Shown: positions 337 through 57,860 of the stretch, piece by piece
Numbering within the stretch: position 1 is the first letter of the stretch
Layout: each line of letters starts with the position of its first letter
Notes under the pieces: generated by a model
The model's input: the letters and a program-made list of their open reading frames with translations, nothing else
The model's database searches: none
What the model was told of the DNA's origin: nothing
NCBI GenBank assembly: GCA_042571725.1
Contig: JBHPFN010000006.1
Coordinates: forward strand, 1 to 62,296
Source: Candidatus Omnitrophota bacterium
GTDB taxonomy: Bacteria; Omnitrophota; Gorgyraeia; VGKH01; JBHPFN01
Reading direction: 5' to 3'
Length of the DNA stretch: 62,296 nucleotides
Made by a program: the position numbers and the translations under genes

Positions 337-786
337 TCAAGCGGAAAATAAGCTGCCTACGTACACCATAAGAAATAAAGTGATAAAAACTATGGTAAGC
401 TCAATGAGTGTTTTTATAATGTTTGAAAGGCGATTTTCTTGATCTGCCCCTCTCATTAAGGCGCGTACAAGGGTTAAGACATCAACTGCAGTCCAAATCA
501 TAATAAAGGATAATAGTGCATGAACGCGCATTACTGACTTGGGAATTTCGAGCTTATAAAGCACGGCGTAAGTGCACACCACTGACACAAATCCAATAAT
601 TCCTACCAAAACAAATTTAGATGGCTTTCTAAGAGATAGAAGAAACAGGCCTCTTTTCGTTGGCTGATCACCGGAATCCTTCAGGTAGCTTGAATACACA
701 TTTTGAACATGCGCCAGCACCCCTAAGAAAAAGAAAGCAAAAAAACACCCCATTAATAAAGCTTCGATTATGGTTATATATGGCAT
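337..786 (-). CDS. hypothetical integral membrane protein
   Basis: 149-aa ORF with about 4 hydrophobic helices; no recognisable motif. Confidence 0.5.
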   Translation of the reverse strand: MPYITIIEALLMGCFFAFFFLGVLAHVQNVYSSYLKDSGDQPTKRGLFLLSLRKPSKFVLVGIIGFVSVVCTYAVLYKLEIPKSVMRVHALLSFIMIWTAVDVLTLVRALMRGADQENRLSNIIKTLIELTIVFITLFLMVYVGSLFSA

Positions 787-869: not shown

Positions 870-1481
870 TTATTGTGTGCGTTCAGGGAACGTCAGAATA
901 GTGTCGACAATCCTCAAAAAGCGATTATCTTCTGCTTGGCTAAGGATATGATGAAACAGCATTGCTAAAAACAACACATAGAGCAAATACACCTTGTGCC
1001 AATACAAGCTTACCATTAAATTCTTAGACACTTCTAGATTTTCCGCCGTCGATTCTTTATATTCAGCCGCTTCCTGAGTAGGAGTCTTAAGATATTTCAA
1101 GGCAGCTATCTGCTCATCAATAACTCTGGCAGCCGCGGCAATATATATCTTGGCACCGCAAAAAATTATTGCTATAACCACCAGCAGCGCAATGCACGGT
1201 CCCACTTTATACATTTTACTTTTTCGACGTATGAGAAACTGCGCATCGGCTGAACTCAGCTTTGCCCCCATTGCTACTCCTTTTTCAATACGACTATGAA
1301 TACTGAACTCCTTAAAGATATTGTACATCCCTGTTGCTGCTATTGGCAAGGTTAAATTCCTTAATTTTCCATTATTTTTTTTCTTTACATTCCAACTGCT
1401 CAAGCATATAATAAACACACTGCCCACCAATAAATTAATATAAGCAAACCTTAAAGGGAGGTCAAAAATGGGATTGGACAT
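870..1481 (-). CDS. hypothetical membrane protein
   Basis: Long ORF with several hydrophobic segments. The first ATG (1481) overlaps the divergent STAS gene start and has no SD, so the start is uncertain. Confidence 0.4.
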   Translation of the reverse strand: MSNPIFDLPLRFAYINLLVGSVFIICLSSWNVKKKNNGKLRNLTLPIAATGMYNIFKEFSIHSRIEKGVAMGAKLSSADAQFLIRRKSKMYKVGPCIALLVVIAIIFCGAKIYIAAAARVIDEQIAALKYLKTPTQEAAEYKESTAENLEVSKNLMVSLYWHKVYLLYVLFLAMLFHHILSQAEDNRFLRIVDTILTFPERTQ

Positions 1482-1848
1482 CAAAGTTACAAAGAAAAAA
1501 GATTTTGTCTATACCGCACAGTTAGAAGGCCCTATCGATAGCGACACCTACCATCAACTCGAAGAAGAGTTAAAAGAAATTATTGATGAAAAAACAAAAG
1601 CACTTATTTTAGATATGAGTAATGTTGACTACGTAAGCAGTGCAGGGATTCGAACCGTGCTCTGGGCACAAAAAGCCCTTAAAGAAAAAAATGCAACCTT
1701 TGCCATGACCAACCTACAACCTCAAATCAAAAAAGTATTTGATATGATGAAAATCCTGCCTATCATTGATATCTTCGAAGACATGCCCGAGGCAGACAAA
1801 TACATCGATCAGGTCATTAAAGAAGAAACGCAAAAGCAAGGCACATGA
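1468..1848 (+). CDS. STAS-domain protein (anti-sigma-factor antagonist, SpoIIAA-like)
   Basis: 126 aa; 'LILDMSNVDYVSSAGIRTVLWA' is a typical STAS core; strong SD AGGGAGG upstream of the ATG. Confidence 0.8.
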   Translation: MGLDIKVTKKKDFVYTAQLEGPIDSDTYHQLEEELKEIIDEKTKALILDMSNVDYVSSAGIRTVLWAQKALKEKNATFAMTNLQPQIKKVFDMMKILPIIDIFEDMPEADKYIDQVIKEETQKQGT

Positions 1849-2873
1849 AACCAGTTGTATCCTTTGTGGACATCGAAGACCTCTGGGAAGCAGAGTATCT
1901 TAAAGATCGCCTGCAAACGGAAGTTACTCTTAAGCATTACGCAGAAACTGCTGATCTTGCCCTCGATAAAATTAAAGACAGTGTAGTTCTCTCCACTTTT
2001 ATTAATTCTAAAGTAGATAAAAAGGTAATCGATTCTCTCCCTAAGCTTAAATACATCACTACGCGCTCCACTGGCTTTGACCACATCGATATTGAACATG
2101 CCCGCTCAAAAGGCATTAGCGTTTCAAACGTACCCACCTACGGTGAAAACACCGTTGCCGAACACACCTTTGCACTCATCCTCTCCATTGCACGCAATTT
2201 AAAAAAATCACATTTTAAAGTAAGCGAAGGAGATTTTTCCATTAAAGAACTCATGGGCTTTGACCTGAAAGGAAAAACCATCGGCGTTGTGGGTACCGGC
2301 CACATCGGCCTTCGGGTGATAAAGATGGCGGTAGGTTTTTGCATGAAGGTCTTGGCGTTTGACCCGATGCAAAATCATTTTCTTGAAGAGGTGCTCGGGT
2401 TTAAATACGCTGATTTCGAAACACTGCTCAAGGAATCTGACATAATCACTCTGCACGCACCTCACAATAAAAAAACTCACCATTTGATAAACGAAGATAA
2501 TATTAAGCTTATAAAAAAGGGCGCGATCCTTATCAATACTGCGAGAGGTGCTCTGGTAGATACGCTAGCCCTTACCAAAGCGCTGGATGAAGGAATCTTA
2601 GCTGGTGCCGGCCTTGATGTGCTTGAGGGAGAAGATATTATCCTTGAAGAAAAACAACTCTTAATGCGCAAAAAGAAAGAACTATACAACCCTGAAAAAC
2701 TCCAGCTAATGCTTCGAAACGGCTTCCTTTTACAGAGGGAAAATGTAACATTTACCCCCCATACTGCCTTTTATTCCAAAGAGGCCCTGCAGCGGATCCT
2801 CGATACCACCTGCCAAAATATAAAAGGATTTCTCGAGGGAAATCCTGCAAACGCAGTAAATGCCGCAACCTAG
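1845..2873 (+). CDS. D-isomer-specific 2-hydroxyacid dehydrogenase family (NAD-binding)
   Basis: 'GKTIGVVGTGHIGLRV' Rossmann motif, 'ILINTARG' and 'TPHTAF' family motifs; ATGA overlap with the STAS gene. Confidence 0.85.
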   Translation: MKPVVSFVDIEDLWEAEYLKDRLQTEVTLKHYAETADLALDKIKDSVVLSTFINSKVDKKVIDSLPKLKYITTRSTGFDHIDIEHARSKGISVSNVPTYGENTVAEHTFALILSIARNLKKSHFKVSEGDFSIKELMGFDLKGKTIGVVGTGHIGLRVIKMAVGFCMKVLAFDPMQNHFLEEVLGFKYADFETLLKESDIITLHAPHNKKTHHLINEDNIKLIKKGAILINTARGALVDTLALTKALDEGILAGAGLDVLEGEDIILEEKQLLMRKKKELYNPEKLQLMLRNGFLLQRENVTFTPHTAFYSKEALQRILDTTCQNIKGFLEGNPANAVNAAT

Positions 2874-2879
2874 ATTTTA

Positions 2880-2908
2880 TTGACTGTTGCAAAAGACTGC
2901 TGTAGACT
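2880..2908 (+). promoter_or_regulatory. sigma70-like promoter, apparently leaderless (TTGACT-17-TAGACT, 8 nt to ATG 2917)
   Basis: Hexamers read directly from the sequence; no SD between the -10 and the ATG. Confidence 0.4.
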
Positions 2909-2916
2909 ATAATCCA

Positions 2917-4800
2917 ATGACCAAACAGCAATCCTTGCTTCGTAAATCGTTTTCTATCCTTAATTCCGTCATTATTCTTGTTTTTTTCGCCTTCCTGCTT
3001 GATCTAGCTTGTAAATGGACCTCTCAGCATCCTTTTAGCCTCCTAACGCTCTTTATCATTTTCCCCCTTAAGGTTTACCTATTCAGCGGCATCTACGGCA
3101 CTCTCGCAGAGCTTGCCAGCGGCAAAGAAATGGTAGTAAGCGTTGCGCTCTTAAAAAACAATGTAAGAAAATTTTGGAAACCTTATATCGCTTTTGCGCT
3201 TTTTCATGTTGCCGCTCACCCCTACTCACCGCTTGCCGCAACATCATCACTCGGCCCTTTTAATAGTATCATCGCATGTATATTTATCTATTGGGTTATC
3301 GTCAGAAAATGCCTATCGCCTAGGGATCTTGCAAAAAGAAAGATCGCCATTGCACCCCAGTTAACTTTTTCTCTTTTAGCGCTCTATCTGCTGCAGATAG
3401 CTCTTTTCTACCCCCTTGGTTTTACAGGCCTCGGTAGATGGTATTCGCTGATTCTCTTTGCATCACGATATATTCATTTTCTTATCGTGCTCTCAATCAC
3501 CCTGTCAGTGTTCGATGTCTATCCTGAGATTAAAAAAAATCGTATCCATCAAAAGGAAATATTTCTCGTTAATCCGGTAGGCGGGGGAGTTTTTAACAGC
3601 TTCTCTCTTATCGCGACACGCTTCCTATATCCTCCGTTTTTCTTGATCTTAAAAACACTCACCCCGAAACACTATCACTTCAAAGAGTTCAACCGTGTTA
3701 ATTTTTATGATCGCTACTACAAAAGCAATGTGCTGGTCGCCATATCCTGTTACACTTCAAACTGCCAAGAGGCTTACAAAATAGCCAAAGAATTTAAAAA
3801 GCGCGGCGCAACCGTCATTATGGGTGGGCCTCATGTCACCTACCTTTCTGATGAAGCCCTGGAGTTCTGCAACAGTGTAGTGCTGGGGGAAGCCGAAGGC
3901 GTTTGGAAACAAGTCATCAAAGACTACGAAAACGGCTGTCTTCAAGAAAAATACGTTGCCCAGCCCCTTGAGAAGTACTATCAAGAAGTTCAACCTGGAA
4001 TCCTGAATGCTTCCCCCCATATGATCAAAGACTATCTTGAGGCTAGCCGTGGATGTAAGTACCGCTGCGATTTTTGCACGGTGCCTAATTTCAATGGAGT
4101 GCCTCTTAGAAAAAAACCCATTCGCTTGCTTCTGGCACAGATTAAAAGATTTAACCAATCCCACAAAAAAGTATCGTTTCTCGATAATAATATGTACGCG
4201 GACCCGCACTATGCTGAAAAACTTTTTAAGGCGCTAAAACCCCTCAAGATTAAGTGGGGCGGTCAGTGCACAATTGACATTGCCAGAGATGCTCAAACCA
4301 TTCAACTGCTGAAAGATTCTGGCTGCGATCGCATCCTCTTCGGATATGAGATTTTCGGTGATTCTCAAGAAAAGAAACAGGGTGGGAAATACGGCTTATC
4401 GGAAAAATACCTGCAGTTTACCAAAAGAATTAAAAAAGCGCGGATTGCAATAAAAGGCCAGTTTATCTTTGGCTATGATTCTGATAATCTAAAAAATTTG
4501 CTTCGCTTATGGAAATTCAGCTTCCTGCTTAGTCCCTCGCGAATAGGGCTTTCTATCCTCACGCCTGTTCCCGGGGCGCCGATGTATTACACTATACTAC
4601 GAGAAAACCGCTTAACCAGCCTTAACTGGCGCAATTTCGACTGTTTTAACCTTGTTTTTCAACACGCCCGGTTAAAAAATGGTCTGCTCAACGCCTTCTC
4701 GCCTTTACTGCGCTATGTCTTTGTACTTACCGCTTCAAAACAAGGATATGCGATACTCGCGGTTTCAGCATTAGCTCTAATAGTGTTGCGTTTTAAGTAA
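2917..4800 (+). CDS. polytopic-membrane B12-binding radical SAM enzyme, paralog 1
   Basis: N-terminal ~210 aa with about 6 TM helices; B12-binding-type segment 'VLVAISCYTSN...KKRGATVIMGGPHVT'; CX3CX2C 'CKYRCDFC'; C-terminal TM helix. Start moved to ATG 2917 because it aligns with the paralog start (MTKQQSLLRKSF vs MVPREPAFKRSF). Confidence 0.85.
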   Translation: MTKQQSLLRKSFSILNSVIILVFFAFLLDLACKWTSQHPFSLLTLFIIFPLKVYLFSGIYGTLAELASGKEMVVSVALLKNNVRKFWKPYIAFALFHVAAHPYSPLAATSSLGPFNSIIACIFIYWVIVRKCLSPRDLAKRKIAIAPQLTFSLLALYLLQIALFYPLGFTGLGRWYSLILFASRYIHFLIVLSITLSVFDVYPEIKKNRIHQKEIFLVNPVGGGVFNSFSLIATRFLYPPFFLILKTLTPKHYHFKEFNRVNFYDRYYKSNVLVAISCYTSNCQEAYKIAKEFKKRGATVIMGGPHVTYLSDEALEFCNSVVLGEAEGVWKQVIKDYENGCLQEKYVAQPLEKYYQEVQPGILNASPHMIKDYLEASRGCKYRCDFCTVPNFNGVPLRKKPIRLLLAQIKRFNQSHKKVSFLDNNMYADPHYAEKLFKALKPLKIKWGGQCTIDIARDAQTIQLLKDSGCDRILFGYEIFGDSQEKKQGGKYGLSEKYLQFTKRIKKARIAIKGQFIFGYDSDNLKNLLRLWKFSFLLSPSRIGLSILTPVPGAPMYYTILRENRLTSLNWRNFDCFNLVFQHARLKNGLLNAFSPLLRYVFVLTASKQGYAILAVSALALIVLRFK

Positions 4801-4833
4801 GGACAATGTAAATTCTCGAATAAAAAATTGTGG

Positions 4834-4862
4834 TTGACAATTGTTTATTAATGCAATAAAAT
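4834..4862 (+). promoter_or_regulatory. sigma70-like promoter TTGACA-17-TAAAAT upstream of peptide genes 1 and 2
   Basis: Consensus -35 at 4834-4839, 17-nt spacer, -10 at 4857-4862. Confidence 0.5.
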
Positions 4863-4946
4863 AAAGCAGATAGAATAATTATTACTGCATTTCTGGAACT
4901 TCATAAAAGTAGATTCGATAAAACCTAGCAAAAGAAGGATGGAAAA

Positions 4947-5030
4947 ATGGGAGCTATTTCAGTAATTGCATTAGTCGGTATTTTTGTTCTATCGCTGAAC
5001 TTCCTAGATTTTTACTGGTGGATGCGTTAA
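4947..5030 (+). CDS. small hydrophobic peptide, DFYWW family (27 aa: MGAISVIALVGIFVLSLNFLDFYWWMR)
   Basis: ATG with a purine-rich GAAGGA upstream; shares the C-terminal FLDFYWW.R with two other sORFs in this locus. Confidence 0.6.
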   Translation: MGAISVIALVGIFVLSLNFLDFYWWMR

Positions 5031-5083
5031 ATAGCCGCTAATTTTTTTGGCGAGCATGGCGACTTTCCTAACAAGGAGAAAAA

Positions 5084-5170
5084 ATGAGTGCAATAGGAAT
5101 ATCTGTAGTAATAATAGTGTTACTTACTATTAGTTTTAGTTTTTTTGATTTCTACTGGTGGTTGCGTTAA
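5084..5170 (+). CDS. small hydrophobic peptide, DFYWW family (28 aa: MSAIGISVVIIVLLTISFSFFDFYWWLR)
   Basis: AAGGAG SD 5-6 nt upstream of the ATG; 22/28 residues identical to the peptide at 7258-7344. Confidence 0.65.
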   Translation: MSAIGISVVIIVLLTISFSFFDFYWWLR

Positions 5171-5197
5171 AATAGCCGTTAAGTTCTTTAGCAGTAA

Positions 5198-5234
5198 GGC
5201 GAATTTCCCGAACAGGAAAATTCGCCCTTTTTTT
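5198..5234 (+). terminator. intrinsic terminator after peptide gene 2
   Basis: GGCGAATTTCC...GGAAAATTCGCC hairpin followed by CTTTTTTT. Confidence 0.6.
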
Positions 5235-5235
5235 A

Positions 5236-5264
5236 TTGCGCCAATGAATGAACTATTGTACACT
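5236..5264 (+). promoter_or_regulatory. sigma70-like promoter, apparently leaderless (TTGCGC-17-TACACT, 8 nt to ATG 5273)
   Basis: Same geometry as the promoter of paralog 1; no SD. Confidence 0.35.
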
Positions 5265-5272
5265 ATATTTCA

Positions 5273-7168
5273 ATGGTACCCCGCGAACCAGCTTTCAAAA
5301 GATCATTTGAGATACTCAGTTCTACTCTTATCCTCGTAATCATTGCTTTTCTGTTTGATTTAATCTTTAAATCTGCACTTGCAAACTCCCTATCCTGGCT
5401 GACGCTCTTATTCTTCTTACCCGCAAAAATCTATCTTGTAAGCGGCCTCTACGGTAGCTTGGTTGAAATAGTAAGTGGCCAAGAAATGGTAGCAAACGTT
5501 GCACTCTTAAAAAGGAACGTAAAAAGTCTCTGGAAACTCTATGCCCCGTTTGCGCTGTTTGAACTCATTGCATATTTACCCTACTCTACAACCTCCTCTT
5601 TCTCTCTTGTGCCCTTTTCGCTTATTCCTCTTTTTTTCCTTTCCTATGTAATTGTCGCTAAGAAATACCTCAAGCCTTTTAAGATTGAAAGAAAAAAAAT
5701 CAACATAAGCGTTATCAACGTCGCCGTTGTCCTTGCGCTCTTGCTTATCGATATAGTCCTTTCCTTGGTATTAAAGAATATGGCCATAGGAAAATCGCAA
5801 CTGTTACTTATAGCTATTTCTAGATGTCTGCATTTTCTGTTCTTTCTTTACATAACAACTCTTTTTTTAGATGGATACCCGGAGATTTATAAGAAGTTCG
5901 ATGCAAAAAAAGAAATCTTTCTAATTCACCCTGTATGGGGTGGCGTATTTGATCATCTGGGAACAGCCTTAATACGTTACTATCCGGCAGTTTTTATAGT
6001 CCTCAAAGCGCTCACTCCTAAAAATTACACGTTCAGAGAGTTCAATAGGATTAATTGGCATAAAAGATTTTACAAAAAAAATAAATTAGTAGCTATTACC
6101 TGTACCTCCTCAAACTCCTACGAGGCCTACAAAATCGCCAAGGAATTCAAGAAGCGTGGCTCAACGGTCATCATGGGCGGCGTGCACGTTTCTTATTTTT
6201 CAGATGAAGCCTTAGAGTTCTGTGACAGTGTTGTTATCGGTGAAGTCGAGGGAGTGTGGAAGCAGGTAATTCATGATTATGAAAATAACTGCCTTCAAAA
6301 AAAATACCTCGGCTATCCCAAGGAAGATTTCTATACGGAGACCCATCTTGAACTCCTTAATTCTCCTCCTGAAATAATACATAGTTACCTTGAGACGATC
6401 CGAGGATGCAAATATAAATGTGATTTCTGTACCATTCCTTCTTTAAGCGGTCACTCCATCAGACATAAGCCCATCGCTCAAACTGTTGAATTAATTAAGA
6501 AAATGGGACCCCGATACGCAAAAGATGTGAAATTCATCGATAACAACATATATGCAGACCCGGCACACTCCAGAGAACTCTTCAAGGCATTAATCCCTCT
6601 TAATATCCAATGGAAAGCCCTCTGCACCATTGATGTCGCAAAAAACGATGAAATACTATCGCTTGCCAAGAAAAGCGGATGCTCTGGATTTCTCATTGGC
6701 TATGAGATATTTACCGGTTCAAGCGAAAAAAAACAAGGTGGGAAATTTACCCTTTCAGAACAATATATACAGCTAAGCAATAAAATTAAAAAAATCGGCA
6801 TCAGGATTAAAGCACATATGATCATAGGGTGGGACTCTGATAATGTAAAAAGTGTATTTCGGTTATGGAAATTTTGTTTCACTATTAATCCTTATGCGTG
6901 CTCCCTTTCGCTTCTCACCCCCCTGCCCGGATCAAATCTCTTTTACTTCATGATAAAAGAAAACCGAATAACCAATCTGAGCTGGAGAAACTATTCTTAT
7001 CACAGGTTAGCGTTTCGCCACAAACAAATAAATGGCTTTATCCTGGGTAGCTTATTTACTCCCTTGCGTTTTCTTTATCTCTACACCACAACTAAAGTAG
7101 GGTACGGAATAATGGCAATAGCGGCCTTTATGACTTTAGTATTTCTAGGCCTCAGCTTCCTGGCTTGA
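5273..7168 (+). CDS. polytopic-membrane B12-binding radical SAM enzyme, paralog 2
   Basis: Collinear with 2917-4800 over its full length; 'KLVAITCTSSN...KKRGSTVIMGGVHVS', 'CKYKCDFC', N-terminal multi-TM region and C-terminal TM helix. Confidence 0.85.
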   Translation: MVPREPAFKRSFEILSSTLILVIIAFLFDLIFKSALANSLSWLTLLFFLPAKIYLVSGLYGSLVEIVSGQEMVANVALLKRNVKSLWKLYAPFALFELIAYLPYSTTSSFSLVPFSLIPLFFLSYVIVAKKYLKPFKIERKKINISVINVAVVLALLLIDIVLSLVLKNMAIGKSQLLLIAISRCLHFLFFLYITTLFLDGYPEIYKKFDAKKEIFLIHPVWGGVFDHLGTALIRYYPAVFIVLKALTPKNYTFREFNRINWHKRFYKKNKLVAITCTSSNSYEAYKIAKEFKKRGSTVIMGGVHVSYFSDEALEFCDSVVIGEVEGVWKQVIHDYENNCLQKKYLGYPKEDFYTETHLELLNSPPEIIHSYLETIRGCKYKCDFCTIPSLSGHSIRHKPIAQTVELIKKMGPRYAKDVKFIDNNIYADPAHSRELFKALIPLNIQWKALCTIDVAKNDEILSLAKKSGCSGFLIGYEIFTGSSEKKQGGKFTLSEQYIQLSNKIKKIGIRIKAHMIIGWDSDNVKSVFRLWKFCFTINPYACSLSLLTPLPGSNLFYFMIKENRITNLSWRNYSYHRLAFRHKQINGFILGSLFTPLRFLYLYTTTKVGYGIMAIAAFMTLVFLGLSFLA

Positions 7169-7210
7169 TTTATTGTACTGCAGGGTTATGAAAAAACGTA
7201 AAATTTACGC

Positions 7211-7239
7211 TTGACAATTTTAGTGCTGAGCATTACAAT
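7211..7239 (+). promoter_or_regulatory. sigma70-like promoter TTGACA-17-TACAAT upstream of peptide gene 3
   Basis: Hexamers read directly. The 13-nt palindrome CGTAAAATTTACG ends two bases upstream of the -35. Confidence 0.55.
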
Positions 7240-7257
7240 TTAAACAAAAGGAGAAAA

Positions 7258-7344
7258 ATGGGCGCAATAGGAATATCTGTAATAGTCATAGCGTTATTTA
7301 CAATAAGTTTTAGTTTTTTAGATTTCTACTGGTGGTTGCGTTAA
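7258..7344 (+). CDS. small hydrophobic peptide, DFYWW family (28 aa: MGAIGISVIVIALFTISFSFLDFYWWLR)
   Basis: AAGGAG SD upstream of the ATG; conserved C-terminal motif; followed by a strong terminator. Confidence 0.65.
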   Translation: MGAIGISVIVIALFTISFSFLDFYWWLR

Positions 7345-7375
7345 ACCGCTAGTATTGGTCTAGAAAATAATTAAA

Positions 7376-7410
7376 GCCAATTTTCTTTAAAAGAAAATTG
7401 GCTTTTTTTT
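7376..7410. terminator. intrinsic (probably bidirectional) terminator
   Basis: GCCAATTTTCTT/AAGAAAATTGGC stem followed by T8; lies between convergent genes. Confidence 0.7.
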
Positions 7411-7428
7411 AACAATATCGGCGATTGC

Positions 7429-8037
7429 CTACTTAAAACGCTTATACATAAACGGCATGTTTATTACGATATAGACAATAAAATATGCGCTGATGGCAAA
7501 AAGATATACCTTAAGAATGCTTGAGCTAAAAACAAAACAGGCAATGATAAACGCAGCCACAATAGTAATGCGAGATATATTATCAAGCGCCTGGATGCCA
7601 TCCACCAGAGACAGAGTGTCGTATTTCCTGCTGTAAATTTCACCGAGCTGATAAAGGGTTTTTTGGGATAGCTCTTGTTTCTTATAGTCGCAAGTTATCA
7701 GCTGTGTGCTGATCTCTACTACAGTTTTTTTTCGTAAATAGTGCAATCTGATACACGGATACATTAGAATCGGCACCCACCCAAAATAGATATATTCTTC
7801 AGTATACAGCGCAAATAATCCTACGCACAACAACACCGCACAAAGCATTCGCTGTACCCTAATTGCCTTGCTCAAGCGGCAGCATAGCTCTATATAGCCT
7901 TTTACCTTTTCAAGCCGTTGCTTTACCCCGGGTTGCGCGATAAGAAACGAAAACCAGCGGTACACCTGATGGTCGGTTTCAATCGAACTGGCAATCGATT
8001 CGATACTACTTACGTTTTCCTGCTTAGGTACGTCCAT
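7429..8037 (-). CDS. hypothetical membrane protein
   Basis: ORF with about 4 TM segments. Start placed at ATG 8037 (GGGAGA SD-like upstream) rather than the TTG at 8073. Confidence 0.5.
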   Translation of the reverse strand: MDVPKQENVSSIESIASSIETDHQVYRWFSFLIAQPGVKQRLEKVKGYIELCCRLSKAIRVQRMLCAVLLCVGLFALYTEEYIYFGWVPILMYPCIRLHYLRKKTVVEISTQLITCDYKKQELSQKTLYQLGEIYSRKYDTLSLVDGIQALDNISRITIVAAFIIACFVFSSSILKVYLFAISAYFIVYIVINMPFMYKRFK

Positions 8038-8099
8038 TACATCTTTCTCCCGTAAATGTAGTAAGTGTAGCAAAGACTACGTGCTGCTTCAAGAGAAAA

Positions 8100-24684: not shown

Positions 24685-26313
24685 ATGCAATTTAACCCCT
24701 TTTCAATTCCTCCACTTATTGGCAGCAGCATTCTATTTTTTTTAACAATTTTTGTTTACTTAAAGAACCCAAGATCTCTTGTTAATATTAGTTTTTCCTT
24801 GCTTTGTATAAGTGTTTTTATCTGGCTAATCGCTGACTCCGTTCTTTTTTCTCTAAAAGAGGCTCGTTACGTAATTCTTTTTACCCGATTGGTTTATATT
24901 GGAGTTACAGCGATACCAATAACGGGCCTTCTTTTTGTATTTTGTTTACTAAAAAGAAATTTGAAACAATATAAATTTCTATTTGGAGGCTTAATAGCTG
25001 CATATTGCATCGTGCTCTTGTTAATTTTTGAAACCAAGCTCCTTGTCTCTGGAAGCTATGAATTCTTCTGGGGCTATTACCCGAAAGCAGGCAAATGGCA
25101 TTTCATATATATGGCTTTGTGGCTTTCTTTATATTTAAAAACAATGTATTTAACTTACATCCACGGATATAGAAATATTGCAAATTTATATACTAAAGAG
25201 GAGTGCAACAGAATCAAATACGGCTTTTGGATTCTCGTGTTTGGTTGTCTTGGAATAATTGATTTCTTAGCCAAATATGGATTTGAGGTTTACCCCATCG
25301 GCTACATATTCATTCCAATTTTCGCTTTTATCACAGCGTATTCTATAGTAAAGCATCATATTTTAGATATCGAAATAGTCTTGAAAAAAGGCTTGGTCTA
25401 TTCAATATTAGTAGGAATAATCACCATCATTTACCTTCTTTTGGTTGTCTTAGTTGAAAAGCTATTACAAGGCATGATGGGATACCAATCAATAGTTATA
25501 AGTGCTGCTGCTGCTCTGGTTATAGCGCTATTATTTATTCCTCTCAAAAACAAGATCCAGAATTTTGTAGATAGAGTGTTCTTTAAAGGAACATTTTCTC
25601 AGATTGCCCAAGAAAAGGAGCTAATGCAGCAAGAGCTTGAGCGTTCTGAGCGGCTCAAGGCGGTTGCTACCCTTGCCTCGGGCATGGCACACGAGATAAA
25701 AAACCCATTGACTGCTATAAAGACGTTTAGTGAATATCTGCCAGAGAAAAAGGATGATGCTGAATTTTTGAATAAGTTCTCAAAGATAGTCGGCAGCGAA
25801 GTAGATAGGATCGACTCGCTAGTGCATCAATTGCTTGATTTTGCTAAGCCTGCACCTTTAAAGCTACAGAAAATAAATATTAATGTGCTTCTCGATGAAA
25901 CCCTTACTATATTAAACAATGAATTTATTAAGCATAAAATTACCGTGACCAAGGAACTCACGCTCACGAATAACCGGAAAATTCAAGCAGACCTTAATCA
26001 ATTGAAGCAGGCCTTTTTAAATTTATTCCTCAATGCGATAGATTCAATGCCTAAAGGTGGATCGCTTATCGTAAGAACGCTTAGGCAGACAACTACTAAA
26101 CAATCTATCGAGATCGCAATCAGCGATACCGGATGCGGGATCTCTAAAAAAGATTTACCTCGTCTCTTCGACCCGTTTTTCTCTACGAAAGAAAACGGAG
26201 CGGGCTTAGGACTTTCTATTACGCATGAAATCATCAAAAACCACGGCGGGAAAATTCGTGTAGAAAGCAAAAACGGCAAAGGTTCAACTTTTATGGTGGA
26301 ATTACCTGCTTAG
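24685..26313 (+). CDS. sensor histidine kinase with N-terminal multi-TM (7TM-type) domain
   Basis: About 7 TM helices; H-box 'HEIKNPLTAI'; HATPase 'DTGCGI...GAGLGLSI'. Confidence 0.85.
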   Translation: MQFNPFSIPPLIGSSILFFLTIFVYLKNPRSLVNISFSLLCISVFIWLIADSVLFSLKEARYVILFTRLVYIGVTAIPITGLLFVFCLLKRNLKQYKFLFGGLIAAYCIVLLLIFETKLLVSGSYEFFWGYYPKAGKWHFIYMALWLSLYLKTMYLTYIHGYRNIANLYTKEECNRIKYGFWILVFGCLGIIDFLAKYGFEVYPIGYIFIPIFAFITAYSIVKHHILDIEIVLKKGLVYSILVGIITIIYLLLVVLVEKLLQGMMGYQSIVISAAAALVIALLFIPLKNKIQNFVDRVFFKGTFSQIAQEKELMQQELERSERLKAVATLASGMAHEIKNPLTAIKTFSEYLPEKKDDAEFLNKFSKIVGSEVDRIDSLVHQLLDFAKPAPLKLQKININVLLDETLTILNNEFIKHKITVTKELTLTNNRKIQADLNQLKQAFLNLFLNAIDSMPKGGSLIVRTLRQTTTKQSIEIAISDTGCGISKKDLPRLFDPFFSTKENGAGLGLSITHEIIKNHGGKIRVESKNGKGSTFMVELPA

Positions 26314-27491
26314 ATCTTCCCTTCCTCACACAACTCTAAAAATGCCTTTGCTGCAATAGGAGTGAATTGCGTGCCGCTGCCTTTTTTGATTTCTCCGATT
26401 GCAGTTTCTTTTGGCAGGGCCGGACGGTAGGGCCTGTCGGAAGTCATGGCATCATACACATCGGCAACAGCAATGATCGCGGCAATTAAGGGTATCTCAT
26501 CGCCTTTTAAGCCTTCAGGGTATCCTCTGCCATCATAGCGCTCGTGATGATACTTAACGCCTTTAATAGCTTCTTCTAATTCCTTGATCGGCTGCAGGAT
26601 TTTTATCCCTTGGATTGGATGGGATTTAATTTTTGCAAACTCCTCATCGGTGAGCTTTCCCGGCTTATTTAAGACTGCCTCAGGGATCGCAATCTTTCCG
26701 ATGTCGTGTAATAAACTTGCGATATGTAGATTCTCTAAGAATTTCTGCGGGAGATTAATCTCTTTATAGGTAAGCACTTTCTCGGCGATGAGCAGCGAGT
26801 ATTTCGTGACTCGCTCAGTGTGACCACCGGTATAGTGGTCTTTGGCTTCGATTGCCTCTGCTAAGGCAACCGTAGTATTGATAAACAGTTCGTGGTTAAT
26901 CTTGACCTCGCTCTGCAGATCTTCAAACAGCTGTGCATTGCGAATAGCCATGGCTACGTCATAGGCAAGGGCAACAAAGAAATCTAACTCTCCTTTAAAA
27001 AACTTTTTCTGTGTATTTTTTCTACCTAAAATCAGTACGCCTAAAAGCTCCTTACGGTAATAGCTGGGGATGCATACCCTTGCCGCAAAAAGCTCCATTT
27101 GTGTTTTGACCTCATGCAGAAGTTCGTCGATGCCCTTTTCTTTCTTGATTACCTGATCCTTCCAAATAATGTTATTGATGTTATCATAAACCAAGGCGCC
27201 GCCGTCTTTGCTTAATAAATATTCTTTCTGTAATTTAAAAAATTTGATTAAAGCGTTATTGTTGTCAATGCGTGCGTAGCCCGCCGGGATCTTTATCCCC
27301 TGCTCGCCGCGGGAAACTGTTAAGACATAGGATTCTTTGAGCTTATCATAAAGAAGTATCCCGGCGTGGGTGACGCCGATTTTTCTATTCATCATACGCA
27401 CGACCATCCTAATCAAGGATTTAGGGTCATGCACCAAGATCATGGTTTTGGCTGCTGTTTCTAATTCTTTTTTGTAATCTAAATGTGTCAT
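26310..27491 (-). CDS. GAF plus HD-GYP domain protein (c-di-GMP phosphodiesterase family)
   Basis: 'HDIGKIAIP', 'HHERYDGRGYP'; N-terminal GAF-like region. Confidence 0.85.
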   Translation of the reverse strand: MTHLDYKKELETAAKTMILVHDPKSLIRMVVRMMNRKIGVTHAGILLYDKLKESYVLTVSRGEQGIKIPAGYARIDNNNALIKFFKLQKEYLLSKDGGALVYDNINNIIWKDQVIKKEKGIDELLHEVKTQMELFAARVCIPSYYRKELLGVLILGRKNTQKKFFKGELDFFVALAYDVAMAIRNAQLFEDLQSEVKINHELFINTTVALAEAIEAKDHYTGGHTERVTKYSLLIAEKVLTYKEINLPQKFLENLHIASLLHDIGKIAIPEAVLNKPGKLTDEEFAKIKSHPIQGIKILQPIKELEEAIKGVKYHHERYDGRGYPEGLKGDEIPLIAAIIAVADVYDAMTSDRPYRPALPKETAIGEIKKGSGTQFTPIAAKAFLELCEEGKI

Positions 27492-36467: not shown

Positions 36468-37388
36468 TTACGGCAGGGCCTCGATGTCTTGAGGTTTCTC
36501 AATGTTGTGGACTTTAAGCTTTGGATCGATGCGGCGTAGGAGGCCTTTTAATACCTTGCCGGGGCCGATCTCTAAAAACGTAATAACTCCGTCAGCGGCA
36601 ATCAATCGAATTGAATCTTCCCAAAGCACAGAAGAACTGACTTGTTTTTTAAGGTTCGGGCGGATATGATCGATGTTTTCATGAGGCTTGGCAGTCACAT
36701 TGCTTATTACCGCGGCAGCCGGCTCCATCACCACAATATCTTCAAGTTCTTTCTCTAGCCTTTCTCCGGCTGAAGTCATCAGGGAAGAATGAAACGCTCC
36801 GCTTACCTCTAAATCAACCGCGGTCTTTGCGCCGGCAGCGATAGCCTTTTCCTTGGCAGCGTCTACTGCTTTAGCTTTGCCTGTGATAACAATTTGCCCC
36901 GGGCAATTAAGATTAGCTATCTCCGCGCCGGTTTGCGCGCAGATCTCTTTTAGCTTGGTTTTATCTAAGCCGATTACCGCAGCCATCTTGCCGGGATTCT
37001 TCTTTGCCTCTTCTTCCATAAGCTGTGCGCGCTTTCTAACTAACGCTAAGCCCTCTTCAAACTCTAATACCTCCGCGGCAATAAGCGCAGAATACTCCCC
37101 TAAGCTTAAACCTGCCATGAATCGAGGGGTAATCGTTAATGATTTCTCATGAGTCTGGAGTGCACGTAAGGCAGCGATGCTATGGATAAGGATTGCGGGT
37201 TGGCAATTAATAGTGGATTTAAGTTCTTCAGCAGGGCCTTCAAATAGAAGTTTTGTGAAATCACACTGTAAAACCGAATTTGCAGCATCGAAGATCTTAC
37301 GCGCTGCTACTGAAGATTCGTAGAGCTCTTTGCCCATCCCCACATACTGGGCGCCCTGGCCGGGAAAGATATATGCGGTTTCTGTCAT
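36468..37388 (-). CDS. fabD: malonyl-CoA:ACP transacylase
   Basis: 'FPGQGAQYVGMG', 'GLSLGEYSAL'. Confidence 0.9.
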   Translation of the reverse strand: MTETAYIFPGQGAQYVGMGKELYESSVAARKIFDAANSVLQCDFTKLLFEGPAEELKSTINCQPAILIHSIAALRALQTHEKSLTITPRFMAGLSLGEYSALIAAEVLEFEEGLALVRKRAQLMEEEAKKNPGKMAAVIGLDKTKLKEICAQTGAEIANLNCPGQIVITGKAKAVDAAKEKAIAAGAKTAVDLEVSGAFHSSLMTSAGERLEKELEDIVVMEPAAAVISNVTAKPHENIDHIRPNLKKQVSSSVLWEDSIRLIAADGVITFLEIGPGKVLKGLLRRIDPKLKVHNIEKPQDIEALP

Positions 37389-37428
37389 TATCTGATAATG
37401 AAAAAGAAAAAAGACAAAACGAAATCTG

Positions 37429-38409
37429 TTACCACTTAATCACGCAAGAGCCCCAGACAAGGCCTCCGCCAAAGGCATCGAGTACTACGATATCGCCCTT
37501 TTTAATGCGCTTCTGTTTTACCGCCTCTACCAACGCAGTTGCAGTTGACGCTGAAGACATATTTCCGTAGCGGGAGATATTCATAAACACCTTCTCAGTG
37601 GAAACCTTAAGCCTCTTGGCAACTGCTAAGAGTATGCGGATATTTGCTTGATGGAAGATAAAACAGTCTACCTTATCAACCGAGAGGCCTGCTTTTGCAA
37701 CCGTCTGCTCTGCAGCATCCGCTAGAATCTTTACGGCGAGCTTAAAGAGCTCATTGCCTTTCATCTTTATAAAATGCTGCTTATTTCCTACGGTTTTATG
37801 CGTCGCCGGATGCCGTGACCCACCACCGGGAATCAAAAGAAGATCGCTTAAGCTACCATCACTGCCTAAATAAGTAGAAAGAATCCCTCCGTGATGAACC
37901 GACTCCAATACGCATGCGCCTGCGCCATCACCAAATAAAACACAGGTATTTCTATCTTCCCAATCAGTAATCGAGGTGAGCTTCTCAGAGCCGACCACTA
38001 ACGCGTTTTTATACAGGCCGGTTGAGAGAAACTGCTGGGCAATCACAATCCCATAGACAAATCCCGCACACGCAGCACTTATATCAAAACACGCAGCATT
38101 TTTAGCACCCAGTGCCTTTTGTACAAAGCATGCGGTGGAAGGAAAATTCATATCCGGGGTGATGGTGGCAACAATAATAAGATCGATATCGTGAGGATTG
38201 AGTTTGGCATTTTTTAAGGCTGCCTTTGCTGCCTTAACTGCCATGTCGCTTGCGGCTTCGGTTTTTTTTGCAACCCTGCGTTCTTTGATGCCTGTTCGGG
38301 TGGTGATCCACTCATCGGAAGTCTCTACCATTTTTTCTAAGTCCGCGTTGGTCAAGCGCTTCTTAGGAACATACATTCCTAAGCCGGTGATACCGATGTG
38401 CTTTATCAT
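37429..38409 (-). CDS. fabH: beta-ketoacyl-ACP synthase III
   Basis: 'DISAACAGF', 'HQANIRI', 'GNMSSAS'. Confidence 0.9.
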   Translation of the reverse strand: MIKHIGITGLGMYVPKKRLTNADLEKMVETSDEWITTRTGIKERRVAKKTEAASDMAVKAAKAALKNAKLNPHDIDLIIVATITPDMNFPSTACFVQKALGAKNAACFDISAACAGFVYGIVIAQQFLSTGLYKNALVVGSEKLTSITDWEDRNTCVLFGDGAGACVLESVHHGGILSTYLGSDGSLSDLLLIPGGGSRHPATHKTVGNKQHFIKMKGNELFKLAVKILADAAEQTVAKAGLSVDKVDCFIFHQANIRILLAVAKRLKVSTEKVFMNISRYGNMSSASTATALVEAVKQKRIKKGDIVVLDAFGGGLVWGSCVIKW

Positions 38410-39395
38410 GCTGATGCAATCTCCTCAACAATTGCTTCGTTAATCTTGCCTTCTACCTCTTTTTTAGCAGCGCGGATAGCATTTTTAATCGCCTTTGCAG
38501 TAGAACGCCCATGTCCGATAATAACAATTCCATTAACTCCTAAAAGAGGCGCGCCGCCATATTCTGAATAGTCCATACTTTTCTTAAGCCGCTTAAGGCT
38601 GCCCTGCATCAAGAGGATTCCCAGCTTCCCCCAGAAATCACTTAGGATCTCCCGTTTAAATAGCTGCATAAGAACCTCAGCCAAGCTTTCTGATACTTTT
38701 AGGGCCACATTTCCTACGACACCATCGGTGATGATACAGTCGCAATTGCCGGAGAAAAGCTCTCTGCCTTCTACGTTACCGATAAAATTAAACTTTGCGC
38801 TCTCCATTAAGACGTGGGCCTCTTTTACTACCCCTGTGCCTTTTGATTGCTCCTCGCCGATATTTAACAAACCGACTGAGGGAGTATTCTTTTTTAAGAC
38901 AGTACGCGCATAGGCATCTGCCATTAAGCCGTAGTGAAGAAGATGGCTCGGCTTAACATCGATATTCGCCCCGACATCCATAATCAGCGTCGTTCCCTTG
39001 AGCGTGGGCATAATGATGGCAATGCCGGGCCGTTCAATATTAGGAAGCATTTTTAAGATAAACGTTGCCGCACACACTACCGCACCGGTATTGCCGGCAG
39101 AGACCATAGCATCGACTTTTTTCTCGTTGAGTAATTCGGTAGCCTTAGTAATGGAAGAGTCTCTCTTTTTGCGGATACTGCTGGTGGCGGGTTCGTTCAT
39201 ATCGATTACTTCAGAGGCATGCTCAATTGAAATGCCTGCAGGAAGATTCTTGTATCTTTTGAGTTCGCGCTCAATTTCATCACGGCGGCCTACGAGCACT
39301 ACCTCAACGCCGTGCTCTTCCACCGCGGCAATGGCGCCGCCTACAACAACTTGCGGGGCATAATCCCCGCCCATAGCATCAACAGCTATCTTCAT
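38406..39395 (-). CDS. plsX: phosphate acyltransferase PlsX
   Basis: 'KIAVDAMGGDYAP', 'SAGNTGA'; conserved position after rpmF. Confidence 0.9.
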   Translation of the reverse strand: MKIAVDAMGGDYAPQVVVGGAIAAVEEHGVEVVLVGRRDEIERELKRYKNLPAGISIEHASEVIDMNEPATSSIRKKRDSSITKATELLNEKKVDAMVSAGNTGAVVCAATFILKMLPNIERPGIAIIMPTLKGTTLIMDVGANIDVKPSHLLHYGLMADAYARTVLKKNTPSVGLLNIGEEQSKGTGVVKEAHVLMESAKFNFIGNVEGRELFSGNCDCIITDGVVGNVALKVSESLAEVLMQLFKREILSDFWGKLGILLMQGSLKRLKKSMDYSEYGGAPLLGVNGIVIIGHGRSTAKAIKNAIRAAKKEVEGKINEAIVEEIASA

Positions 39396-51320: not shown

Positions 51321-51334
51321 TTTTTAATTATAAC

Positions 51335-51448
51335 GGAGCATCGACCTACTCTCCCGTAGCCTTGCGACTAGAGTACCATTAGCCCTGAGGAGCTTAACTG
51401 CCGTATTCGGAATGGGAACGGGTGTTTCCCCCTCGGTATAGACACTCC
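51335..51448 (-). rRNA. rrf: 5S rRNA
   Basis: Reverse complement contains CCCGTTCCCATTCCGAATACGGCAGTTAAGC and GGGAGAGTAGG; terminal helix GGAGUGUC/GAUGCUCC. Confidence 0.85.
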
Positions 51449-51489
51449 TTTAAAATTTTAATAACTACACAGCGTAAAAAAACGAAATG

Positions 51490-54508
<3,019 letters not shown>

Positions 54509-54608
54509 TACGCAGATAACCGTCTTTTTCCGCTATGTAGTTATCAAAGAACAAGTGCGTTTTAAAACGCATTAAATCTATGTGTGCTTAATTTTTTTGC
54601 TTATGTTA

Positions 54609-54684
54609 TGGTGGACCTGAGGAGGCTCGAACTCCTGACCCCCTGCTTGCAAAGCAGGTGCTCTCCCAGCTGAGCTACAGGCCC
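54609..54684 (-). tRNA. tRNA-Ala (UGC), CCA encoded
   Basis: Cloverleaf folds by hand; G3:U70 pair; anticodon loop CUUUGCAAG. Confidence 0.9.
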
Positions 54685-54702
54685 CGAAAATATTATCTAA
54701 AG

Positions 54703-54778
54703 TGGTGGGCCCAAGAGGACTCGAACCTCTCACCCCCGCGTTATCAGCACGGTGCTCTACCGGATGAGCTATGGGCCC
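54703..54778 (-). tRNA. tRNA-Ile (GAU), CCA encoded
   Basis: Acceptor GGGCCCA/TGGGCCC; anticodon loop CUGAUAA; T-loop TTCGAGT. Confidence 0.9.
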
Positions 54779-54949
54779 AGTCCGTAGCTTCCTATAATCT
54801 ATTTGAGCCCAGTTGCTCGATTTGATTTCGAGCGAAATTTAGAGCCCTCAAAAAAGAAAAATAGCCAAGTTCCTCCGTGGAGAGAAACTATGTTTTTAAA
54901 TTCCTATTTTTAAAAAAGTATTTTCGAAAAAAAACTTTTAAAAAAATAG

Positions 54950-56550
<1,601 letters not shown>

Positions 56551-56843: not shown

Positions 56844-57860
56844 TTAATGCGAGGTCTCGAAAATACCGTCAATTTTCGCTCCGCAAAAAGCGCAGTTATT
56901 TTCTTCTAAATGAATATTTTCTACATTAAAACTGATCCGCTCAATCACGCTTTTTCCGCAATTATAACAATCGGTGTGCTCTGATTCTCCTGAAACGTTA
57001 CCCAGATATACATAGCGTAAGCCTGCGTTTTTACCGATCACTTCTGCGCGCTTTAATGTTTTAAGCGGCGTAGGGGCTTTATCACCACACTGAAAATCGG
57101 GATGGAATTTACTAATATGCCAGGGAATTTCAAATCCTACGCTTGCAATAAAAGCTGCAATATCTTTTAATTCATCTTCGGAATCGTTATCGCCGGGCAC
57201 GATCAATGTAGTGACTTCTACCCAAATCCCCAGTTTTTTCATGTGCTGGATTGAATCCAAAACCGGCTGCAAACGAGCACCGCAAATATCTCTATAAAAC
57301 TCATTGCGGAAAGATTTCAAATCAACATTACAAGCATCTAAATATGGGGCTATTGTATCCAGTGCCTCTTTAGTCATGTAGCCGTTGGTGACAAAATTAT
57401 TATAGAGCCCTTGCTGTTTCGCACTCTTTGCAGTATCAAATGCGTATTCAAAAAAAATCGTCGGCTCAGTATAGGTATACGATATACTCTTGCATTGTTT
57501 GCGAATGGTTTGCGTAACGATCTCTTCAGGAAGCAACCGTGTACCCTTAAAATCATTTTGCTGTTTTGAGGCTTGAGAAATTTGCCAGTTTTGACAAAAA
57601 CCGCATGTAAAATTACAACCGATGGTTGCCACAGAAAACGATTGACTCCCTGGAAAAAAATGAAATAACGGCTTCTTCTCAATCGGATCAATTTGCGCTG
57701 CGATAGCTTCAGCATAAACATGGCTATACAGCTTTCCATCTAAATTCTGCCTGACACCGCAGATGCCAAGCTGTGAAGATTCGATGGTGCAGCGGTGCGA
57801 GCAAAGCTTACACTGCAGTGCACTGCCGGACTTTTCATAAAGCATAGCCTCTTTACGCAT
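56844..57860 (-). CDS. AmmeMemoRadiSam-system-type radical SAM enzyme (PflA-like activase fold)
   Basis: N-terminal 'CKLCSHRC...GICGVR' cluster and CX3CX2C 'CNFTCGFCQNW'; C-terminal CxxC..CxxC. Confidence 0.7.
   Translation of the reverse strand: MRKEAMLYEKSGSALQCKLCSHRCTIESSQLGICGVRQNLDGKLYSHVYAEAIAAQIDPIEKKPLFHFFPGSQSFSVATIGCNFTCGFCQNWQISQASKQQNDFKGTRLLPEEIVTQTIRKQCKSISYTYTEPTIFFEYAFDTAKSAKQQGLYNNFVTNGYMTKEALDTIAPYLDACNVDLKSFRNEFYRDICGARLQPVLDSIQHMKKLGIWVEVTTLIVPGDNDSEDELKDIAAFIASVGFEIPWHISKFHPDFQCGDKAPTPLKTLKRAEVIGKNAGLRYVYLGNVSGESEHTDCYNCGKSVIERISFNVENIHLEENNCAFCGAKIDGIFETSH

Follow-up and report, generated by a model that had tools for sequence, protein, structure and literature searches.

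The stretch of DNA analysed here (hereafter the window; 62 kb from an Omnitrophota contig, to which all coordinates refer) carries two genes for radical S-adenosylmethionine (SAM) enzymes and three genes for very small peptides with a common DFYWW tail, all within an interval flagged at 2880-7410, as well as a convergent gene for a small membrane protein just outside that interval. The gene order is enzyme 1, P1, P2, enzyme 2, P3 and then the convergent gene, whose product is termed the partner. The locus elaborates, in a lineage-specific manner, a conserved membrane module of two genes, for the enzyme and the partner, which was found almost wholly in Omnitrophota. In the window, the enzyme is tandemly duplicated, and orphan peptide genes occupy gaps that are nearly empty elsewhere.

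Enzyme 1 (2917-4800, plus strand; an open reading frame (ORF) of 627 amino acids (aa) from an ATG, with an alternative upstream TTG start at 2887) and enzyme 2 (5273-7168, plus strand; ORF of 631 aa) are integral-membrane, B12-binding-like radical SAM proteins with 49% identity over their full length. The catalytic part of both belongs to the radical SAM superfamily, with Pfam Radical_SAM scores of 49.3 bits for enzyme 1 and 39.3 bits for enzyme 2 (cutoff of 29.5) and CX3CX2C motifs of GCKYRCDFC and GCKYKCDFC, respectively. The three cysteines of the motif were invariant across 23 homologs, in which the only other conserved cysteines were C317, likewise invariant, and C470, with a conservation of at least 90%. 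An earlier note on this DNA had also read a B12-binding domain into each protein. Pfam analysis upheld this assignment for enzyme 1 (34.0 bits, above the cutoff of 32.1), while enzyme 2 fell below the cutoff (24.9 bits).

The AlphaFold2 model of enzyme 2, built from 23 homologs, had a predicted local distance difference test (pLDDT) score of 81.9 and a predicted template modelling (pTM) score of 0.82. The model comprised six N-terminal helices (residues 19-37, 42-68, 76-101, 113-133, 147-169 and 174-200), followed by a five-stranded Rossmann domain, a radical SAM barrel and two C-terminal helices (588-630). A Rossmann domain of the B12-binding type N-terminal to the radical SAM core is the domain layout of class B, and the catalytic part is predicted to be of the class B type in its two-domain fold as well as in its sequence. 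The hydropathy of the transmembrane (TM) segments and the distribution of lysine and arginine residues agreed with an N-in topology and a cytoplasmic catalytic domain. Pfam, the structural model and hydropathy thus corroborated the unusual architecture to which the earlier note had drawn attention, namely a polytopic membrane domain joined to a B12-like domain and a radical SAM core. Among 1.84 billion representative proteins, the N-terminal TM domain was restricted to the N-terminus of this enzyme family; all 49 matches were N-terminal, in proteins of ~640 aa or truncated fragments, and none occurred in another architecture.

Foldseek comparison of the enzyme 2 model with the PDB returned AprD4, MgmA, TsrM, OxsB, MiaB/RimO, CysS and TokK, at only 13-16% identity. 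The class B enzymes TsrM, MgmA, TokK, CysS and OxsB (Foldseek E-values of 1e-7 to 1e-10) share with the window enzymes a Rossmann B12-type domain followed by a CX3CX2C-containing partial TIM barrel; however, they are without the polytopic membrane domain, the C-terminal TM helix and the dedicated membrane partner of the window module. The top PDB match by both profile search (E = 2.5e-9) and fold (E = 4.9e-12) was AprD4, a radical SAM 1,2-diol dehydratase (PDB 6fd2). This protein has the same two-domain layout, but it is soluble and acts on an aminoglycoside, whereas the window enzymes are membrane-integrated.

None of the NCBIfam families of B12-dependent radical SAM enzymes was reached, the best being HpnJ/TIGR04013 at ~75 bits (cutoffs of 251-578). 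The matches to HpnJ (75 bits), the ladderane-associated radical SAM enzyme (53-61 bits) and BchE (40-50 bits) were all far below cutoffs of 360-650; PhpK, MgmA/TIGR04014, HpnR and TsrM were likewise far below theirs (cutoffs overall of 251-750), and ApyD and AprD4 scored 30.9 bits (cutoff of 750) and 28.6 bits (cutoff of 500), respectively. Although sub-cutoff, HpnJ, HpnR, the ladderane-associated enzyme and BchE were among the best NCBIfam matches, and their hydrophobic substrates would rationalise the membrane integration of the window enzymes. We know of no polytopic membrane domain in any of these four. The window held no hopanoid or ladderane gene context. For the lipid radical SAM enzyme Tes, no TM helix is reported to be predicted with confidence (PMC8941075). 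A full-text literature search returned no description of a polytopic-membrane or TM-fused B12-dependent radical SAM enzyme, nor of this Omnitrophota family. To our knowledge, no other radical SAM enzyme is built into the membrane by a dedicated polytopic domain. What is new here is the membrane-integrated architecture of a known superfamily, together with an obligate-looking partner.

When a single genome was scanned for each of 185,579 species, 253 relatives of the enzymes were identified, nearly all of them in Omnitrophota, and the best 77 of the 253 loci were examined with 6-kb flanks. The protein search gave 344 matches at E ≤ 1e-5; among the 120 matches listed, most were 620-690 aa long and every source name was Omnitrophota or Omnitrophica. 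The nearest relatives in the protein database (P0003, P0004 and P0007) were ~50% identical to the window enzymes. Both window enzymes matched the family hidden Markov model (HMM) at full length, with 883 and 918 bits. We defined the module as a full-length enzyme with six TM helices, a B12-like domain and a radical SAM domain, with a convergent partner gene of ~200 aa immediately downstream, and the window locus is an instance of it.

The partner gene lies directly after P3 on the minus strand, convergent to the enzyme array. Its ORF spans 214 codons (7429-8073), and a probable start at 8037 gives a protein of 202 aa (7429-8037), an all-helical membrane protein with four predicted TM helices. 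A tblastn search with the partner gave matches in more than 40 loci, where they were placed in the same way relative to the enzyme. The iterated HMM gave 52 partner-domain matches, comprising 50 separate ORFs and two N-terminal fusions; the separate ORFs were almost all convergent and lay between -59 and +143 nt from the stop codon of the enzyme gene or, in a tandem array, of the final enzyme gene. The window partner itself matched this HMM with E = 3e-66. The partner was present in ~50 of the 54 evaluable arrays and missing from four that had sufficient downstream sequence (L020, L024, L025 and L051); four further arrays were cut by contig ends and stood outside the evaluable set. Each of the closest relatives had an enzyme gene and a convergent 202-aa gene, either overlapping by 9 nt or 7 nt apart. 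The ~30 homologs without TM helices (~450 aa) never occurred with a partner.

When neighbouring proteins were clustered by blastp, the partner was the only conserved neighbour, present at 40 of the 50 loci; the runner-up, a response regulator, reached 11. No other conserved neighbour was found for the TM-fused homologs, and none for the TM-less homologs. The family-wide companion of the enzyme is therefore this ~200-aa membrane protein, which the earlier note had overlooked, in place of the peptides. The eye-catching peptides are lineage-specific, and the component that is truly conserved lies just outside the flagged interval, on the opposite strand.

In one locus (L049; JAIORP010000096.1), the partner and the enzyme are fused in two paralogous ORFs (1-2382 and 5269-7896; 794 and 876 codons from stop to stop), which supplies Rosetta-stone evidence for a physical complex. 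The partner belongs to no family in Pfam, NCBIfam or PADLOC, and databases name it 'hypothetical protein'. Its AlphaFold2 model (pLDDT of 82.6) consisted of helices only, four of them long and hydrophobic, with a further helical region at the N-terminus, and had no significant fold match in the PDB (best E = 0.87). Across two deep subfamilies, D22, W28, T127, Q130, E133, S143 and D146 were invariant, and R137 and L113 were near-invariant; the protein contained no conserved cysteine or histidine and no cofactor-type motif. Homology of the partner to the TM domain of the enzyme was considered and rejected (hhalign probability of 0.4%). In another locus (L062; DAOWGP010000103.1, 5938-7909), the enzyme gene runs through four consecutive frames and the downstream partner gene is intact; the breaks are apparent frameshifts, from a pseudogene or an assembly error.

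The module was arranged as a single enzyme with its convergent partner, as repeats of this pair (L002, L023 and L029), as two tandem enzymes with one partner (L035, L038 and the window) or as three tandem enzymes with one partner (L003/L078). Single genomes held four to five loci (OY759724.1, CAZAXH01, JAKQKX01 and JAIORP01), and a rough neighbour-joining tree placed these in separate old clades common to several genomes, with tandem copies being mostly lineage-specific. The window enzymes were sisters on long branches, in agreement with the tandem duplication that the earlier note had proposed. The closest relatives (L118-L120 and the P0003 contig) shared an upstream block that is not in the window, comprising a 183-aa ORF with no Pfam family, an NAD-dependent epimerase, a ~450-aa ORF with no Pfam family and one or two ~145-aa ORFs with no Pfam family. 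This block may represent an addition to the module that is particular to their lineage.

The three peptide genes are on the plus strand, and each is preceded by a Shine-Dalgarno (SD) sequence of the AGGAG type: P1 (27 aa, MGAISVIALVGIFVLSLNFLDFYWWMR; 4947-5030, SD GAAGGA), P2 (28 aa, MSAIGISVVIIVLLTISFSFFDFYWWLR; 5084-5170, SD AAGGAG) and P3 (28 aa, MGAIGISVIVIALFTISFSFLDFYWWLR; 7258-7344, SD AAGGAG). The ORFs encode single-TM peptides in which the C-terminal DFYWW[LM]R, directly before the stop codon, is invariant. P2 and P3 were 79% identical at the aa level, and P1 and P3 were 52% identical. Between P1 and P2 or P3, there were 13-14, 6 and 14 substitutions at codon positions 1, 2 and 3, respectively, synonymous differences in 5-7 codons that included a TCG-AGT switch for serine, and a length difference of a single codon, in frame. 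Because of this codon-position pattern, the serine switch, the in-frame indel and the synonymous differences, the peptide genes are genuine coding genes.

The expression signals of the peptide genes were similarly clear. Near-consensus sigma-70-type promoters, each an 11/12 match, precede the P1-P2 unit (TTGACA-17-TAAAAT; 4834-4862, plus strand) and P3 (TTGACA-17-TACAAT; 7211-7239, plus strand), and these were the two best sigma-70 matches within 2700-8200. Between P2 and enzyme 2 lies an intrinsic terminator on the plus strand (5198-5234; a bulged GC-rich hairpin followed by U7), with a folding energy of -20.2 kcal/mol and z = -3.2, which none of 200 shuffled sequences equalled in stability; its end is 38 nt from the start codon of enzyme 2. 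A bidirectional intrinsic terminator with a 15-bp stem (7373-7405, both strands; fold z = -4.0, with the stem detected on both strands) is common to P3 on the plus strand and the partner gene on the minus strand. Behind P1 there is no more than a weak hairpin, so that P1 and P2 probably share one transcript. The claim of the earlier note that these are real genes with strong promoters and SD sequences was thus borne out. The peptides matched no family in Pfam or NCBIfam, and no Rfam match was found.

The earlier note had gone further, and had proposed each enzyme and its DFYWW peptide as a functional module of enzyme and substrate. In the 77 loci, no DFYWW-type small ORF was identified by motif scan or among the hydrophobic small ORFs up to 700 nt downstream of each enzyme gene, and no peptide homolog by sensitive tblastn with P1, P2 and P3; no DFYWW-like small ORF was present at the three closest-relative loci either. 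Around 50 loci, only 20 intergenic small ORFs with an SD sequence were found, of which the sole cluster was formed by the window's own three peptides, and unbiased clustering detected no recurrent small ORF family of any kind. A metagenome-wide scan for F[LF]DFYWW yielded 138 pattern matches and no relative, a second one for DFYWW-x-R-stop yielded 39 matches, all due to chance and none with a hydrophobic ORF, and phage genomes gave no match. Within the window, there were no copies beyond P1, P2 and P3. The earlier note had itself named homologous enzymes standing elsewhere without such small ORFs as grounds against its proposal, and this is what was found across the 77 and the three further loci, so that the proposed linkage did not hold as a property of the family.

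The spacing of the genes pointed in the same direction. The gap between enzyme 1 and enzyme 2 measures 473 nt, compared with -7 to +43 nt in the other tandem arrays, and is wide because P1 and P2 lie inside it; similarly, the 261 nt between enzyme 2 and the partner gene form the largest such gap of all, because P3 lies inside it. On these sequence comparisons, the peptides appear to be lineage-specific insertions into an otherwise compact module. The possibility that the gaps contain what is left of a lost second partner gene or of an enzyme fragment was rejected, since an HMM search of six-frame translations at maximum sensitivity gave only noise. The peptides were also rejected as a split-off C-terminus of the enzyme, as the homologs end in a TM helix without a DFYWW tail. 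Attenuation leaders, suggested by the Phe, Tyr and Trp codons and the terminator before enzyme 2, were rejected as a general explanation because P3 stands alone and is followed only by the bidirectional terminator and the convergent gene.

The reading that we favour, though tentatively, is that a membrane radical SAM enzyme and its partner act on a lipid or hydrophobic small-molecule substrate; the partner would have no catalytic function and would serve as a subunit for presentation or assembly. The enzyme and the partner would form a complex in the cytoplasmic membrane. The lysine- and arginine-rich loops, together with TM helices that are even in number, would place both N-termini, the conserved loop of the partner and the radical SAM domain in the cytoplasm; with four TM helices and an N-in topology, the invariant residues of the partner would thus be on the same side as the radical SAM domain. 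The conserved polar residues of the partner and a loop with an SG..E motif in the TM domain of the enzyme are accordingly both predicted to be cytoplasmic, beside the radical SAM domain, and the order of the L049 fusions (partner, then the N-in TM domain of the enzyme) appears compatible with this predicted orientation. On the inner side of the membrane, the complex may carry out radical chemistry whose substrate is itself embedded in the membrane. This chemistry is probably cobalamin-dependent and of the methylation type, methyl transfer being only the default for the class. A lipid or another hydrophobic small molecule is the most likely substrate, and this substrate class and a subunit role for the partner are preferred because the polytopic domain is distinctive, the fusion favours a subunit and several enzymes share one partner. 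Most likely, the DFYWW peptides represent small membrane proteins specific to this lineage, which are associated with the module or merely lodged in it and are neither its defining component nor its ancestral substrate.

Several points weigh against this reading. On these analyses, the substrate may be a lipid, the partner protein or a peptide. The best PDB match in sequence and predicted fold, AprD4, has a B12-like domain that is not known to bind cobalamin; this match calls for caution in assuming cobalamin binding by the window enzymes, or methyltransferase chemistry. Four to five ancient paralogous pairs per genome would be odd for a lipid modifier, and protein or peptide clients fit this number at least as well. 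The closest genomes in the survey were at ~50% identity, and the absence of the peptides elsewhere holds for relatives at this distance or beyond. Finally, all three peptide genes of the 62 kb stand directly behind the two enzyme genes, with only a terminator separating P2 from enzyme 2. This arrangement resembles many precursor/maturase pairs, and a functional link between peptide and enzyme may therefore exist in this lineage.

An unlikely alternative, drawn by analogy, is that the partner is itself the substrate, so that each radical SAM paralog would modify the invariant cytoplasmic loop of its cognate partner (T127, Q130, E133, R137, S143 and D146) and the peptides would be unrelated or accessory. 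Class B enzymes modify McrA, and MgmA is a glutamine C-methylase; MgmA was the third-best structural match to the window enzymes and a weak NCBIfam match, and the invariant polar residues in the predicted cytoplasmic loop of the partner include a glutamine and form no cofactor-type motif. Neither a function nor a fold can be recognised for the partner itself, and the pairs have co-diversified roughly 1:1, with four to five pairs per genome. However, the similarity to MgmA is generic to class B (13% identity), an enzyme-substrate fusion such as L049 would be unusual, and one partner serves arrays of two to three enzymes. The seven scattered invariant residues resemble a binding or assembly surface more than a single modification site.

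A further explanation, concerning the role of the peptides only and compatible with either substrate model, is that the peptides are unrelated passengers, for example type I toxin-like or membrane-active peptides, locally duplicated into the only sizeable intergenic spaces. We consider this improbable. Consistent with it, the peptide genes are set apart as transcription units by a promoter and a terminator of their own, P1 and P2 are a tandem duplication as in many type I toxin loci, and the peptides are orphans for which metagenome scans and phage genomes gave no homolog. A TM helix with an aromatic and basic tail is typical of small membrane toxins, and P2 showed a sub-threshold match to Ibs_toxin, which was not significant (E = 0.23; score of 11.9 bits, cutoff of 27). 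Neither a toxin family nor an Rfam small RNA was found that would place the peptides in a type I toxin-antitoxin system. No minus-strand promoter was detected over the peptide ORFs, in a scan for consensus promoters only that leaves an antisense RNA possible, and no small RNA signal was seen there. It would be odd for an unrepressed toxin to be driven by strong promoters of constitutive appearance, and all three copies are co-oriented with, and immediately downstream of, the enzyme genes.

The peptides may instead be small membrane subunits of the enzymes, an alternative that the earlier note had itself offered. In this they would be comparable to CydX, KdpF and AcrZ-type small proteins, which they resemble in being 27-28 aa long, single-TM, encoded beside genes for a membrane complex and lineage-restricted. 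The CydX/KdpF/AcrZ-type proteins are usually co-transcribed within an operon, whereas the peptide units of the window have their own near-consensus promoter and terminator.

We consider it distinctly unlikely that the locus encodes a pathway for ribosomally synthesised peptides with post-translational modifications (RiPPs) in the membrane, in which the polytopic radical SAM enzyme would methylate or cross-link the cytoplasmic Phe/Tyr/Trp/Trp tail of DFYWW peptides oriented N-out and C-in, and in which the four-TM partner could serve as an intramembrane recognition subunit for the TM helix of the peptide. In its favour, a peptide gene stands behind every enzyme gene of the window and nowhere else in the 62 kb, and the strong peptide promoters and the terminator before enzyme 2 fit the stoichiometry of a precursor and its maturase. 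The identity of P1 and P3 (52%) approximates that of the two sister enzymes (49%) and is thus compatible with duplication of an enzyme-peptide unit, in which case P2 would have been copied from P3 more recently; a small gene that spread locally accounts for the pattern just as well, and local duplication alone suffices for the clustering of the three copies. Class B enzymes that act on peptides or proteins do exist, as the fold match to MgmA and the weak match to ApyD recall.

The RiPP class B methyltransferases (PoyB/PoyC, ApyD and TsrM-type enzymes) belong to the same superfamily as the window enzymes, and the window likewise has strongly promoted peptide genes beside the enzymes. The linkage of precursor and enzyme is, however, not conserved, as no DFYWW or other recurrent small ORF stood beside ~60 full-length homologs at more than 50 loci, the closest relatives included, and two metagenome scans yielded no peptide homolog. 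The enzyme family is instead conserved with a different partner. In agreement with the earlier note, Pfam analysis of the enzymes and neighbours and conserved-neighbour clustering found no SPASM domain, RiPP recognition element (RRE), protease or exporter; there is likewise no leader of a known kind, and the putative leader of the window peptides would be a TM helix. Slightly more doubtful still is the wider version of this proposal, namely a peptide maturation that is wholly membrane-embedded, with the partner as an intramembrane analogue of an RRE and the other members of the Omnitrophota family acting on unannotated small ORFs of divergent sequence elsewhere in their genomes. If the peptides were clients, this would be the first intramembrane pathway of the RiPP type. 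A defence system was rejected, as the enzymes gave only a weak PADLOC match to PDC-M51A (~30 bits) in the generic B12 and radical SAM region and the partner gave none.

Omnitrophota are ultra-small and largely uncultured bacteria. The presence across this candidate phylum of four to five ancient copies per genome, each paired with a partner of no Pfam family, points to an unrecognised envelope or membrane biochemistry, and identification of the substrate as a lipid, the partner protein or a peptide would set radical SAM chemistry in a new reaction context.

The window as a whole is ordinary chromosome, with an rRNA operon, fatty-acid synthesis genes, RecG, an RND efflux system and signalling proteins. 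Around the module, nothing pointed to a mobile element, to a cobalamin pathway or to a cluster for lipid tailoring. Upstream of the locus are two hydrophobic ORFs (337-786, minus strand, 149 aa; 870-1484, minus strand, 204 aa), which fell into no family of Pfam or PADLOC and had no counterpart by tblastn in the examined loci. Two HD-GYP-type proteins (8100-9506 and 26310-27491, both on the minus strand) lie near a c-di-GMP-I riboswitch (12325-12426, minus strand; 74.6 bits against a gathering score of 35), which is directly upstream of a putative glycosyl hydrolase of 466 aa that is GHL15-like (10748-12148, minus strand).

A Rhs/Tc-toxin-like polymorphic toxin ORF of 2484 aa (13133-20587, minus strand) contains SpvB, TcdB_toxin_midN, FG-GAP, Laminin_G_3, RHS repeat and PT-HINT domains. 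Between 24685 and 35694, three genes for histidine kinases with an N-terminal HisKA_7TM domain are interspersed with two beta-ketoacyl synthase genes and with genes for an HD-GYP protein and an amine oxidase, and plsX-fabH-fabD follow at 36468-39395. The rRNA operon (51333-56550, minus strand) is complete, with 16S, two spacer tRNAs, 23S and 5S, so that the window is chromosomal and can be placed taxonomically from its 16S gene. Beside this operon lies a gene for an unrelated radical SAM protein of 338 aa (56844-57860, minus strand).

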